A stretch of 64,000 nucleotides of DNA from a virus. Within the stretch, counting starts at the first letter, position 1; the number at the start of each line of letters is the position of its first letter. Shown here piece by piece: positions 5,734-29,437 of this stretch. The position numbers and the translations under genes are program-made. The stretch lies in IMG/VR virus record IMGVR_UViG_2931133163_000005. One strand, 5' to 3'. The notes beneath the pieces were generated by a model that was given only the letters and a program-made list of their open reading frames with translations, ran no database searches and was not told where the DNA came from.

Positions 5734-6053
5734 CAGCGCGGCTCCTCGGTCGGCTTCACGGTCAGGACCACGTCACAGCCGACGGCTGTCTTCAGCTGCT
5801 CGGCGAACTGTTCGATGCGGGCAGCGATCGCGCCCGGCTGACCGGGATCCGGGACCGTGATCTCGGCCGAGAGCTGCGGGATGTTCCACAGCGCCTTCGG
5901 CAGCCGGACCTCGACGCGCATGGCGCGCTCGTCGGGCGAGAGCCGCGGGGACTCGCGATTGAGGCGCACGTTGCCCGCCTGGTCGAACGTGAGCCAGAGC
6001 CCGAAGATGATCTCCGTCGGCGTGGACCGGTGGTGCTTGCCGGACGCGCTCAT
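5733..6053 (-). CDS. Hypothetical protein
   Basis: ATG at 6053 overlaps the upstream stop. Confidence 0.65.
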   Translation of the reverse strand: MSASGKHHRSTPTEIIFGLWLTFDQAGNVRLNRESPRLSPDERAMRVEVRLPKALWNIPQLSAEITVPDPGQPGAIAARIEQFAEQLKTAVGCDVVLTVKPTEEPR

Positions 6054-6418
6054 GCCAGGACTCCGAACAGATCCCCGGTGATCGGCTTGCCGTTCGTCGC
6101 TACAGCCGGCCGCACGCCGTGCTCGGCCAGCGCACGCAGGTCCGGGATCATCTCCAGCTCGACCTCGGCCCGGGTGTATTCCCAGCCGGGCAGGCAGGCG
6201 TGCTGGAAGCGGTCGTTGACCTGGAGGAAGCCAGGCAGGTTCGCCCAGGTGACGTGGCATTCGCCGCGGCGGGGGCTGCTGAGGGTGAGAAACACGACAT
6301 CGCGCGCGCCGCGGGTCGAGGGATCGGCGATGGCGGCGGCCAGGGCGCGAGCGGCGATCGCCGCATCGGCGCGCTCCTGCATGGTCGGCGGTGGGAGCTT
6401 TGGGGCGCGGCGGGTCAT
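6050..6418 (-). CDS. Hypothetical protein
   Basis: ATG at 6418 overlaps the upstream stop. Confidence 0.65.
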   Translation of the reverse strand: MTRRAPKLPPPTMQERADAAIAARALAAAIADPSTRGARDVVFLTLSSPRRGECHVTWANLPGFLQVNDRFQHACLPGWEYTRAEVELEMIPDLRALAEHGVRPAVATNGKPITGDLFGVLA

Positions 6419-6774
6419 GCTGCGACCTCGGCTGCCGAGGGCCGCGCGTCGGCGCGGAGCACGATGACGGGCTTGAACCGGAGGATACTGATCCGCGTCG
6501 GCACCGGCTCGCCGCGGGCCTTCATGGCCTCGATTTCGGCGTCGGAGGGCGCCGCCGGGTCGTACTGCATCACCATCCAGTACGGCTTGCCGCCAGCTCG
6601 GATGAAGGCGTGATCGAACGCGCCGTCGAGGCGCCGCCACATCTTCCCGGGGGTCGTGCCCGTCGGGTAGCTGGCGCTGTAGTCCCGCAGGTCCTCGAAC
6701 TGCTGAGGGGTGAGGCGCAGGCGGGGAAGCGTCGCGACGAAGTCGCGCGGCTGGGGTACGACGCGCTCGCTCAC
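6415..6774 (-). CDS. Hypothetical protein
   Basis: GTG at 6774 overlaps the upstream stop. Confidence 0.65.
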   Translation of the reverse strand: MSERVVPQPRDFVATLPRLRLTPQQFEDLRDYSASYPTGTTPGKMWRRLDGAFDHAFIRAGGKPYWMVMQYDPAAPSDAEIEAMKARGEPVPTRISILRFKPVIVLRADARPSAAEVAA

Positions 6775-6992
6775 AGCTCGTACCCCTTCAGGTCGTGGTA
6801 GGCCCGGATCATCCGGGTGAGATCGCCGGACTCGATCGCCTGCTGGCCGCGCTCGACCGCGGCCTCCATCAAGTCGGCGGCGATGAAGCCCATCTCGACC
6901 TGGCGGTACTGGCCAGCGATCTTGGTGACGCGGACCATCTCGCGGGGGAGCGCGGCGGCGAGGGTGTCGGACTGGGGGCGGTCGGTCGTCAT
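6771..6992 (-). CDS. Hypothetical protein
   Basis: 73-aa coupled ORF. Confidence 0.7.
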   Translation of the reverse strand: MTTDRPQSDTLAAALPREMVRVTKIAGQYRQVEMGFIAADLMEAAVERGQQAIESGDLTRMIRAYHDLKGYEL

Positions 6993-26326: not shown

Positions 26327-26382
26327 GCCGACGGCCCCGGCCGGCGCGCGAACCCACCAGCATCACCAGCACAGGATCATCC

Positions 26383-26817
26383 ATGTCCAACACCCAATAC
26401 GACGTCATCGCCCTCACCGCCGGCATCGTGGCGGCCTACGTCGGCCGGCAGGCCGTGTCCGCGACCGATCTGCCCGGCCTGATGCGCACGGTTCGCGACG
26501 GCCTGGTCGCGCTCCAGGAGCCGGCGCCGGCGGCGGCGGCGGCCAAGCCCGAGGGCTTCCGCCTGACGGCCACCGAGATCCGCAAGTCGATGAAGCCCGA
26601 CGCGCTGATCAGCTTCATCGACGGCAAGCCGTACAAGACGCTGAAGCGGCACCTGACGTCCCACGGCCTGACGCCGGACAGCTACCGCACCCGCTTCGGC
26701 CTGCCTGGCGACTATCCCATGGTCGCAGCAGGCTACGCCGCGCAGCGCTCTGCGCTGGCGAAGGCGATCGGGCTGGGCGTGCCCGGCGCCCAGGCCGCAC
26801 GGCAGGCAGCGGAGTAG
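26383..26817 (+). CDS. mucR: MucR/Ros-family transcriptional silencer
   Basis: LTAGIVAAYV, IRKS..PDALISFIDGKPYKTLKRHLTSHGLTPDSYRTRFGLPGDYPMVAAGYAAQRSALAKAIGLG. Confidence 0.95.
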   Translation: MSNTQYDVIALTAGIVAAYVGRQAVSATDLPGLMRTVRDGLVALQEPAPAAAAAKPEGFRLTATEIRKSMKPDALISFIDGKPYKTLKRHLTSHGLTPDSYRTRFGLPGDYPMVAAGYAAQRSALAKAIGLGVPGAQAARQAAE

Positions 26818-26821
26818 CGCG

Positions 26822-28303
26822 GTGAGCAGGGATCGCAGGCCGCCGGGCTCCCGCAGCCCCTTCGAGAACATCGGTCGCAGCCTCGGAAAGCGCGAGCGCG
26901 AGATCTTCGACATCAAGTTCGACAGCGCGACGGTCACGAACGCCGTCGCGCCGCCCGACAGCAGCTGGCGGGACAAGACTGCCACGGAGGTGATGCGCGA
27001 TATGGAAAAGGTGATCCGGGAGATGACGGAGAAGGCGATCTTCGGTGACTTCACCGTAACGCTCAACGGCGAGGACATCGGCCGTTCGAAGGTCCGCTTC
27101 GTCACCCCCAACCTCGACGGCTCACGGCGCCACTCCGATCCGGAGCGTGAACGCCTTGAGGCGGAGGAACGCCGCCTGCGCGAACCGATTGCCAAGTACC
27201 TGCTGAAGGCCGCGCCAGGCGTCGCCTGGAATGATGTCATCGGCAACGACACGGCGCGCACCCACCTGGTGGAGGCGATCGAGCATCCGGTCCGCCACGC
27301 CGAGCTCTACCGCCACTACGGCAAAAAGCCGACGAAGGGCGTGCTGCTGTACGGGCCGCCCGGCTGCGGCAAGACGATGTTCGGCAAGGCGGCCGCCTCG
27401 ACGCTGGCAGCGCTGCACGGCGCGAAATCCGCGTCGTTCATGTCGATCAAGGCGCCCGAGCTGCAGAGCGGCTGGGTCGGCGAAACCGAGCGCACGATCC
27501 GGGACATCTTCGCCTATGCCCGGGCCTACAAGGCGCTGCACGCTCACCCGCTGGTCGTGTTCATCGACGAGGCCGACGCGATCCTGCCGAGCCGTGACGG
27601 CGGCGCCACGTGGTTTCAGGCGTCGAATGTCGCGACCTTCCTGACCGAGATGGATGGGATCGAGGACTCGGGCGCGCTCGTGATCCTGGCGACCAACCGC
27701 CCGGACGCCATCGACGCTGCGATCCTGCGCGACGGCCGCTGCGATCGGAAGATCCGGGTCGAGCGGCCGACCCGGGGCGCTGCCGGGATGATCCTGCAGC
27801 GCGCGCTCCTCAAGGTGCCGCTCGCGCCCGAGACGCTGACGGCTTTCGGCGAGCCGACCCTGGGCGAGATGAGCGGGAGCGGCGAGCCGTACATGCCGAC
27901 GCTGCAGGAGCATGCTCTCGGCGAGCTCGCGCACCACGTGGCCCAGGCCGTTTTTGCCTCCGAGCAGATCATCGTCCAACTCGCCACCGATCAGGGCCCG
28001 CGCTTCATCCGCCTGTCGGACATCGTCAACGGCGCCATGCTGATCGGCATCGTTGAGCAGGCCAAGGGCAACGCCTTCCGTCGGGATCTCACCGCCGGCG
28101 GGAAGCCGACGGGGCTGACGCGCCAAGACCTCGACCAGGCCGTGCTCGCCGTCGTCGCGCAGAACCGCGGGCTCAACCACACGGGCGTGCTGCAGGAGAT
28201 CGCGACGCGCGAGGGCTTCAGCGTGGCGAAGGTCATCCCCGAGGGCGCGGGGCCGCCCCGCTACACGGTGGATGCGGACGACAACGTCGTGCGGCTCCAG
28301 TGA
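26822..28303 (+). CDS. AAA+ ATPase, ARC/Mpa (proteasome-ATPase)-like
   Basis: GVLLYGPPGCGKT, WVGETERTIRDIF, VVFIDEAD, LTEMDG, ATNRPDAIDAAILRDGRCDRKIRVERP, DIVNGAMLIGIVEQAK. Confidence 0.9.
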   Translation: MSRDRRPPGSRSPFENIGRSLGKREREIFDIKFDSATVTNAVAPPDSSWRDKTATEVMRDMEKVIREMTEKAIFGDFTVTLNGEDIGRSKVRFVTPNLDGSRRHSDPERERLEAEERRLREPIAKYLLKAAPGVAWNDVIGNDTARTHLVEAIEHPVRHAELYRHYGKKPTKGVLLYGPPGCGKTMFGKAAASTLAALHGAKSASFMSIKAPELQSGWVGETERTIRDIFAYARAYKALHAHPLVVFIDEADAILPSRDGGATWFQASNVATFLTEMDGIEDSGALVILATNRPDAIDAAILRDGRCDRKIRVERPTRGAAGMILQRALLKVPLAPETLTAFGEPTLGEMSGSGEPYMPTLQEHALGELAHHVAQAVFASEQIIVQLATDQGPRFIRLSDIVNGAMLIGIVEQAKGNAFRRDLTAGGKPTGLTRQDLDQAVLAVVAQNRGLNHTGVLQEIATREGFSVAKVIPEGAGPPRYTVDADDNVVRLQ

Positions 28304-28471
28304 GCGACTGCCCGCCTCACCTCATCCGCCTCGGCCTCCACCGGCCGGGCGTCCCCGGTCTACCGATCATGCCGCCCAAGCACGTTTGGATGGTGCGGTG
28401 GACCCGGGACATGCCGCGGCAGATGCGACTGTCGCGGGCGAAGATCTACCAGCGCAACCGGAGGAAATACC

Positions 28472-28894
28472 GTGCAGAACAAACCTCACCTCACGACGAC
28501 CGAAGGTAAGCCCTTCGGCGCCACCTGGCTCATCACCGCGCCCTGGGCGCATCCCGTCTGGAGCCAGTACGCGCTCGCGCTTTACGACCTGACGACGCCG
28601 ACCGATCAGCCGGCAGTCATCCACCTCGACGGCGCCACGCACGAGTTGCTCCTCGTCGCCCTTGATCCGGCCCACCCGGCCACGAGCGCCCAGTCCCTGG
28701 TCGAGGGCGGGCAAGTCCAGGCGCTCAGTCCGCCGAACCACGGGTACCAGTTCAAAGCCGAGAGCCACGCCGCGGCGATGTCGCGCCTTCAGCAGATCGT
28801 CGACGAGATCGAAGCGCGGCGCCTGTCCCCCGACACTGACTTCCGGGCGGAGTGGGACGCGATGTTCCGAGACGCGCATTCCTTGCGAAGATAG
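28472..28894 (+). CDS. Conserved phage protein
   Basis: APWAHPVWSQY..DGATHE..LSPDTDFRAEW; GTG start after AGGA. Confidence 0.7.
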   Translation: MQNKPHLTTTEGKPFGATWLITAPWAHPVWSQYALALYDLTTPTDQPAVIHLDGATHELLLVALDPAHPATSAQSLVEGGQVQALSPPNHGYQFKAESHAAAMSRLQQIVDEIEARRLSPDTDFRAEWDAMFRDAHSLRR

Positions 28895-29245: not shown

Positions 29246-29437
29246 ATGGACCGAATGATCAAGGAGAAGCGCCCGTGCCCATTCTGCGGGAGCACCAAGT
29301 TAGAGGTGAGCGAGCGTTACGGCGCGCCCGGCTGCTACCTCACTGTGAACTGCCTCAATCTAACCTGTGAGGCGATCGGCCCGAGGGGTGAAGACGATGC
29401 CGCAGCCGTCGCGGCATGGAACCGAGCGATCCGCTAG
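29246..29437 (+). CDS. lar: Lar-family restriction alleviation protein
   Basis: PCPFCGS...VNC..CEAIGP....AVAAWNRA. Confidence 0.8.
   Translation: MDRMIKEKRPCPFCGSTKLEVSERYGAPGCYLTVNCLNLTCEAIGPRGEDDAAAVAAWNRAIR

Follow-up and report, generated by a model that had tools for sequence, protein, structure and literature searches.

Here we describe a gene for an AAA ATPase that resembles the actinobacterial ATPases ARC and Mpa and is carried by the IMG/VR virus record IMGVR_UViG_2931133163_000005; the full stretch of 64,000 nucleotides is called the window in the following, and all of its features given with coordinates below lie on the plus strand. The window is a temperate myovirus-type Methylobacterium prophage with genes for a gpA terminase, a lambda-type portal, an S78 protease, capsid protein E and a tail sheath, and it additionally encodes an O-like initiator (phrog_1032) ahead of the ATPase, MT-A70 and N6/N4 methylases and a Lar-like protein. 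The ATPase gene (26822..28303, stop codon at 28301-28303) was assigned to a predicted ARC/Mpa-like single-ring AAA ATPase of 493 residues on the basis of its open reading frame (ORF), its codon usage, its matches to PF00004 and TIGR03689 and its modelled fold. Since its GC content at third codon positions (GC3 0.90) represents a codon bias typical of real genes, the frame was taken as a real gene. An identical database protein (P0001, 100% identity over the full length of 493 residues) was found, and the named close relatives come from Methylobacterium.

The gene begins with a GTG codon, 7 nucleotides ahead of which a GGAG ribosome-binding site (26811..26814) could be read from the sequence. 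The upstream neighbour encodes a MucR/Ros-type regulator (26377..26817; PF05443 at 134.6 bits) and its stop codon (26815-26817) is situated only 4 nucleotides before the ATPase start, therefore the two genes are tightly coupled. Scanning the surroundings of the ATPase gene for promoters and terminators gave nothing above chance.

Motor module and relationship to ARC/Mpa

According to its motifs the protein is assigned to the classic AAA ATPases (PF00004, 122.9 bits against a Pfam cut-off of 21.2), with every catalytic and pore-loop motif intact. The linker helix and the AAA large domain (27140..27811) were delimited by the motif positions and by their invariance in 61 relatives. This part contains the Walker A motif GPPGCGKT (27353-27376), pore loop 1 (W218-V219-G220, 27473-27481), which lies within WVGETERTIRDIF and aligns to [FY]VGETER of ARC, the Walker B motif FIDEAD (within 27551-27577), the sensor-1 residue N292 (within 27677-27703) and, in the second region of homology, the arginine fingers R303 and R306 (within 27719-27751). 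Both Walker motifs, sensor-1, the two arginines and the pore-loop glycine did not vary among the 61 relatives. The further stretches AELYRHYGKKPTKGVLLYGPPGCGKT (residues 160-185) and DIVNGAMLIGIVEQAKGNA...GKPTGL (residues 400-432) were also located, so that all motifs quoted in the initial annotation of this locus, together with the intact aromatic pore loop WVG, were recovered where it had placed them.

The same annotation had proposed that the protein is ARC/Mpa-like rather than generic, and this proposal is borne out: profile, fold and tree comparisons support the view that the ATPase is specifically ARC/Mpa-like and not CDC48/SpoVK-like. The reference set consisted of ARC proteins from actinobacterial genomes and of PAN, CDC48 and FtsH proteins from archaea and bacteria, the family hidden Markov model (HMM) was built from about 100 relatives, and two unpublished genomes (G024 with locus L226 and G007 with locus L232) were excluded from every alignment and tree. 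The best NCBIfam model was TIGR03689 (pup_AAA) with 234.9 bits over residues 119-458, compared to 164 bits for CDC48, 148 for PAN and 123 for FtsH; this score is less than half of the equivalog cut-off (504.75) and only model positions 164-492 of 512 are covered. Among the protein structures of the PDB, Mpa was the best match per domain and reached 164.5 bits (residues 116-455), VAT D2 having 137.6 bits; whole-protein scores favour CDC48 because both of its AAA domains are summed. The family HMM gave 226-262 bits to ARCs, with an alignment spanning the C-terminal domain, versus 120-205 bits to CDC48 domains and 131-149 bits to PAN and FtsH, which aligned by the AAA core only, and the family profile matched Mpa in a single stretch (residues 231-571, 245 bits). 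When the C-terminal 164 residues alone were compared to the PDB, Mpa was the sole AAA match, at an E value of about 0.75 which became significant only with the family profile. In this region the window segment IVQLATDQGPR-FIRLSDIVNGAMLIGIVEQAKGNA aligns with its ARC counterpart, and both are followed by GL and then by EN.dL.[HN]T. The same part retrieved from the ESM Atlas only unannotated short actinobacterial clusters, which are a lead at best.

An AlphaFold model of the 493-residue ATPase, built on the family alignment, had a mean predicted local distance difference test value (pLDDT) of 83.6, with only residues 1-105 poorly defined. In the Foldseek search the top ranks, down to about 27, were occupied by Mpa chains only. 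The model superposed by VIA-align on Mpa with a Z score of 31.3 and a root mean square deviation of 2.4 Å over 334 residues (model 112-478, Mpa 212-598). Rpt, PAN and p97 reached Z scores of about 24-25, with about 250-290 residues superposing well; the Mpa alignment starts at model residue 112, opposite Mpa 212-235, and still matches model residues 474-478 at Mpa 587-598. The beta-grasp domain, for which we used the definition of PMC9599533, has been called unique to Mpa homologues (PMC8142254, PMC9599533) and its hairpin contacts the alpha ring of the 20S proteasome (PMC9599533). Its layout is recognizable in the model as a lid hairpin (residues 383-397), the next helix, and a later helix and strand. 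The hairpin and the following helix, D-IVNGAM-IGIVEQAKGNA (together 27968..28075), are the counterparts of the Mpa hairpin beta16-17 and its next helix; the hairpin strands 383-389 and 392-397 were modelled with a block-mean pLDDT of at least 95. Further on, the C-terminal helix and the third beta-grasp strand (residues 454-472, with the helix at 454-464 and the strand at 469-472) are followed by two additional modelled strands at residues 480-483 and 489-492 (28181..28300).

The trees were computed on the AAA core only, the beta-grasp columns contributing nothing to them. In a quick tree of 93 rows the family and ARC were each monophyletic and stood on the same side of a branch supported by a Shimodaira-Hasegawa-like approximate likelihood ratio test (SH-aLRT) value of 81. 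A more careful tree of 47 rows separated the family and ARC from CDC48 D1 and D2, PAN and FtsH with an ultrafast bootstrap (UFboot) of 98 and an SH-aLRT of 96; ARC (100/100) and the family (100/98) formed clades, the family standing beside ARC and not inside it. In another quick tree (SH-aLRT only) 28 distant viral relatives were added, which break the long stem: here ARC and the viral proteins were separated from CDC48, PAN and FtsH with a support of 98, the viral clade had 95, and the subfamily of the window ATPase (99) was nested within it. A phylogeny against ARC, CDC48 and FtsH, which had been suggested as a check, thus places the protein on the ARC side, with a borderline result in the topology test that is weighed below.

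The protein ends with VRLQ and not with GQYL, which was found in 21 of the 23 fetched ARC frames (one ended with GRSL and one was cut by the contig end). It is the C-terminal GQYL of ARC/Mpa that opens the 20S gate, and their N-terminal coiled coil binds Pup. Additionally, neither PF16450 nor PF17758 matched the window ATPase and an HMM of the ARC N-terminal domain matched no member of its subfamily, in agreement with the earlier observation that the OB-fold N-domains as well as the GQYL tail are absent.

The viral clade and its variable ends

The initial annotation regarded the ATPase as an orphan, which has to be revised. Based on the sequence comparisons, it is a member of a large clade whose genes were seen mostly on viral contigs and whose sister group is actinobacterial ARC/Mpa. 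The C-terminal 164 residues recovered at least 270 representatives (clusters at 50% identity) from 1.84 billion proteins, and scanning of IMG/VR with the family alignment gave 55 viral loci matching through the ARC-type C-terminal domain, with GC contents of 0.27-0.73 and contigs of up to 607 kb. The carriers range from temperate alphaproteobacterial phages to contigs of 180-600 kb and include lytic and jumbo phage contigs. Of the representatives listed, 103 had 380 residues or more; none of these 103 ended with GQYL, and 46 matched the ARC N-terminal (OB) HMM; this model likewise matched 19 of the 55 viral loci, all deeper members, and in two the OB domain was also detected by Pfam PF16450. 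The subfamily of the window is a derived branch in which the OB domains were lost.

In the place of these domains there is an N-terminal region (residues 1-105, 26822..27136) which evolves fast, with 14-50% identity among relatives versus 68-90% in the AAA module, and which is a candidate for the target-recognition part; no match was found when the N-terminal 120 residues were compared to the PDB sequences. At its beginning a conserved peptide, DRRPPGSRSPFENIGR (residues 4-19, 26831-26878), looks like a short linear binding motif. A looser form of it (P..., then S/N, P/K, F/Y, D/E) occurs in about half of the relatives, irrespective of the presence of a zinc knuckle; this loose motif was counted in 56 of 101 members against 2.9 expected from shuffled sequences, by a regular expression that was written post hoc. 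Most relatives (P0010-P0100, P0123) have a zinc-knuckle-like motif, H/C-x(3-7)-GCGDPxCxxC, about 25-60 residues from the N-terminus. In the clade of the window itself (P0001-P0009, P0014, P0019) there is no N-terminal cysteine, where most relatives have three or four. The zinc knuckle was gained by the subfamily and lost again in this clade.

A 28-residue insert (residues 338-365, TLTAFGEPTLGE..., 27833..27916) was recognized in the alignment. It is gapped in more than half of the family (P0003, P0009 and P0012 lack it, for example) and is confined to part of the window's subclade; ARC also has an insert at this site (..LAEFGGD..).

The other variable end is the C-terminus, where a conserved tail, overlooked so far, was recognized (V-R-L-Q in the window, 28289-28300). 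Among 101 relatives the last residue was Q, H or N in 93, it was preceded by L, V, M or I in 87, and T, R or A stood at position -3 in 71. The 20-30 residues ahead of this three-residue tail vary within the window's subfamily. Many deeper viral members end in AA or TA instead. These endings may serve in docking, as a degron or in a structural role, and through its tail the ATPase may dock on a partner ring.

Gene neighbourhood and the accessory slot

The record nearest to the window is the sister provirus L254 (IMGVR_UViG_2931049572_000002). The two are about 89% identical up to nucleotide 26824 of the window and again from nucleotide 28309, that is, from the start and the stop of the ATPase gene outwards. 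In between, window 26825-28308 is replaced by L254:2071-3811, which encodes a 106-residue ORF and an RtcB-type RNA ligase (PF01139, 83 bits), and no family ATPase was matched in the whole L254 provirus. Since the ATPase is swapped for an RtcB cassette, its gene is an exchangeable accessory element within the early operon, and the slot directly after the MucR gene looks like a cargo hotspot. L254 keeps the MucR gene without the ATPase, hence MucR is not a dedicated partner in spite of the tight coupling. The early operon also contains, about 1 kb further downstream than the ATPase, the Lar-like restriction-alleviation gene (29246..29437; PF14354 at 40.5 bits, phrog_599), which suggests that this is an accessory or counter-defence stretch.

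The initial annotation had put forward the 140-residue protein encoded downstream (28472..28894; a conserved hypothetical protein with 39 homologue clusters) as a possible adaptor of the ATPase. This idea was not supported, as the two do not travel together: a homologue was present at none of 11 other family loci, the ATPase was not found within 4 kb of the homologue at any of seven loci, and the 140-residue gene is retained at 89% nucleotide identity in L254. It has to be considered an independent module. Its family is unannotated and occurs in Methylobacterium and Rhizobium prophages; one copy of 46% identity is on L260, a contig of a Patescibacteria metagenome-assembled genome; this contig may have been misbinned or may be of phage origin.

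No consistent neighbour gene was found for the window's subfamily, and when the ORFs immediately following the ATPase were compared between nine family loci by BLASTP, no likeness was seen at E values up to 10. The neighbourhood analysis proposed earlier was thus negative for the subfamily itself and positive for distant members of the clade only, where two recurrent partners, the sole ones across the 55 viral loci, were identified. In ten of these loci (L273, L275, L276, L290, L291, L292, L297, L303, L310 and L311, each at about 5950-6900) a DUF1360 membrane protein with the motif SCPYCxSHW is encoded within three genes downstream of the ATPase, and in most of the ten a hydrophilic protein of 64-75 residues with a C-x-C ending (e.g. 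GCTCW, CTPCE, DCKC, GCVC) stands between them. This cassette occurred in no locus of the window's subfamily, and the ORFs downstream of the ATPase in the window (140 and 81 residues) have neither a Pfam match nor a CxC end. Elsewhere the family adjoins genes of DNA metabolism: beta clamp, SF1 helicase, PDDEXK nuclease, TerB, DUF2303 and MT-A70. Two prophages with relatives of the ATPase encode a DNA polymerase III beta clamp of their own (L002:7186-8310 and L003:3830-4945), with three DnaN domains each, at 97-99 bits per domain; in L002 the ATPase is directly followed by the clamp gene, and in L003 the clamp gene lies one gene upstream of the ATPase.

PHROGs offered only generic AAA families of unknown function, which matched the AAA core only. 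PADLOC likewise gave only weak matches to the IetA and TRIP13 ATPases (55-70 bits) in the AAA core. The IetA/IteA anti-phage ATPase was rejected as an identification (NF042959 at 62.9 bits against a cut-off of 510, PADLOC IetA at 70 bits in the AAA core only), and no IetS-type protease was found among the window neighbours.

No 20S, Pup or Dop/PafA gene was found among the scanned ORFs of the window, as noted earlier for 20S and Pup. The search was extended to genomes carrying family members, namely those of four related alphaproteobacterial hosts and one Gemmataceae genome. None of the five had a match to PF03136, the Pup-ligase family; each alphaproteobacterial genome had one HslV-like gene as the only clear match to PF00227, and the Gemmataceae genome had no PF00227 match. 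A second, weak PF00227 match (20-22 bits, in a frame of about 297 residues) was seen in Azorhizobium (G052:C1:17621-18178) and Ancylobacter (G053:C1:181251-181805); these genes, which are not near the prophage locus, may encode Anbu-like proteins.

Possible function and comparison with known systems

We propose, with a probability of roughly 60%, that the protein is an active ring-forming AAA unfoldase which threads its substrates and serves the phage as an early gene for host takeover or counter-defence. The identity of the protein, its intact motifs, its fold, its position in the trees and its accessory nature are shown by the analysis; hexamer formation, unfoldase activity, the time of expression and the kind of target are inferred. 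The protein retains the motor and, at the exit side of the predicted ring, the beta-grasp domain of the ARC type. A short, fast-evolving N-terminal region has taken the place of the coiled coil and the double-OB Pup receptor, and instead of GQYL there is another conserved tail (T, R or A at position -3, a hydrophobic residue and a final Q, H or N). The ATPase would most likely be made early in the lytic growth of the temperate Methylobacterium phage, its N-terminal region might bind one particular host or phage protein, and the ring could pull the bound protein through its pore using ATP, by which the target would be dismantled or inactivated as part of host takeover or counter-defence.

Several observations weigh against this proposal. 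The presumed recognition region is poorly modelled (pLDDT 38-72 for residues 1-105). In other phages the ATPase has replication genes as neighbours, namely for a beta clamp, an SF1 helicase and a PDDEXK nuclease. With the AAA core alone, a grouping of the family and CDC48 D2 was not formally rejected by the approximately unbiased (AU) test (p 0.053); nevertheless this grouping is excluded because the beta-grasp and OB domains provide evidence independent of the core. Finally, the retained beta-grasp domain and the conserved C-terminal tail correspond to the parts of Mpa that touch the 20S. These retained contact parts argue for a possible partner ring, and the term stand-alone, used for the enzyme in the initial annotation, may therefore be wrong.

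The last point leads to the main rival, and also the most interesting reading, in which the ATPase is a cap coupled to a peptidase: the ring would dock by its beta-grasp face and its tail on the host HslV or ClpP or on a phage protein ring, giving a degradation machine with a phage-chosen target. We regard this as rather unlikely, though several observations are in its favour. Proteasomal ATPases dock via C-terminal tails (all fetched ARCs that were complete, except one, end with GQYL, and archaeal CDC48s have HbYX-like ends), the very C-terminus of the phage protein is conserved even where the preceding 20-30 residues vary, the Mpa hairpin touches the 20S alpha ring (PMC9599533), and each of the four alphaproteobacterial genomes searched has an HslV-like gene. 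However, the tail has no sequence likeness to GQYL or HbYX, in the AlphaFold model the final residues belong to a beta-strand of the domain and not to a free tail, and such a tail is missing from the homologue of the Brevundimonas phage and from most of the deeper viral members; furthermore, the family has no linked peptidase gene and the Gemmataceae genome gave no PF00227 match. It is somewhat more speculative still that such a cap plugs by its beta-grasp domain and new tail onto HslV, ClpP or another ring as a phage-programmed degradation machine, with the viral clade being a reservoir from which, or into which, ARC was exchanged.

Less probable again is a role in remodelling the replication complex, in which the ATPase would activate or recycle the O-like initiator, a helicase or the sliding clamp. 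Host chaperones and ClpX remodel the initiators of lambda, Mu and plasmids, the gene is located downstream of the initiator gene in the window, and relatives adjoin the replication genes named above. But L254 keeps the initiator and the flanks at about 89% identity with RtcB in the place of the ATPase, so the ATPase is dispensable for that replication module, and none of the replication genes is a constant neighbour of the ATPase throughout the 55 viral loci.

That the gene, carried in a variable hotspot, serves the prophage in defence or superinfection exclusion and acts on other phages has in our view quite a small chance. The slot does differ between the sister prophages and the weak PADLOC matches point to defence ATPases, but these matches concern the generic AAA core and are far below the ARC match, no effector or IetS-type protease partner was seen, the gene is co-directional with early lytic genes, only 4 nucleotides away and with no separate promoter-like site found, and the family is present in lytic and jumbo phage contigs as well.

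A generic CDC48/SpoVK-like ATPase with superficial likeness to ARC is hardly tenable: JGI names relatives as 'SpoVK/Ycf46/Vps4 family', two-domain CDC48 proteins top the whole-protein PDB scores and the AU test is borderline, but ARC/Mpa scored highest per domain in every comparison, the C-terminal beta-grasp region aligns with ARC/Mpa only, the trees place it on the ARC side with 98/96, or with 98 once the viral members are included, and deeper members of the clade carry ARC-type OB domains.

Under the unfoldase proposal, an enzyme that removes one specific host protein would represent a new kind of tool for host takeover or counter-defence, and it might also be a reagent for targeted unfolding. 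The viral clade itself is a natural set of ARC variants in which the role of the beta-grasp domain beyond the 20S, the need of phages for an unfoldase and the origin of ARC could be approached.

Among the known systems ARC/Mpa (TIGR03689; PDB 5KWA, 7PX9) is the closest. It shares with the window ATPase the motor of the classic AAA clade, the [aromatic]-VGETER pore loop, and the lid hairpin, the SGAM..AK..A helix and the GL / EN-dL-h segment that make up the Mpa beta-grasp domain. The window ATPase differs by the absence of the coiled coil, the double-OB domain and GQYL, by its two extra C-terminal strands, by its own type of tail (T/R/A-hydrophobic-Q/H/N) and by being encoded by an alphaproteobacterial phage. 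CDC48, VAT and p97 are also of the classic AAA clade with similar motor motifs, and their archaeal forms have C-terminal docking tails, but they possess two AAA domains and an N-domain and no beta-grasp domain, whereas the window protein has one AAA domain; it falls outside the D1 and D2 clades in the trees, and its 164 bits with the CDC48 model TIGR01243 compare to a cut-off of 803. PAN and Rpt, with a single AAA ring, were the next-best structural matches (Z about 24-25); PAN differs by its coiled coil, OB domain and HbYX tail and by the lack of a beta-grasp domain, and its place in the trees is with FtsH and CDC48, apart from ARC and the viral proteins.

Nearer relatives are found within phages, on whose ARC-like ATPases we found no publication. 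The viral ATPases that keep the OB domains (loci L273-L311) belong to the same clade and have the same architecture of AAA and beta-grasp domains without a GQYL tail; 19 of these members match the ARC N-terminal HMM and ten of the 55 loci have the DUF1360 partner, where the window's subfamily has the N-terminal peptide, the zinc knuckle (lost again in the clade of the window) and its own tail. In the Brevundimonas phages vB_BpoS-Strzyga (ON529867) and vB_BpoS-Polewnik (ON529863) a coding sequence is labelled 'proteasome-associated ATPase', and no study was found behind this label. The Brevundimonas homologue, also from an alphaproteobacterial phage, is a family member with 42% identity over residues 123-460. 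The protein of Polewnik has the zinc knuckle and ends with ANARG, without the hydrophobic-Q/H/N tail. Overall, an ARC-type motor and beta-grasp domain are combined here with different ends, in phages of hosts where no proteasome was detected.

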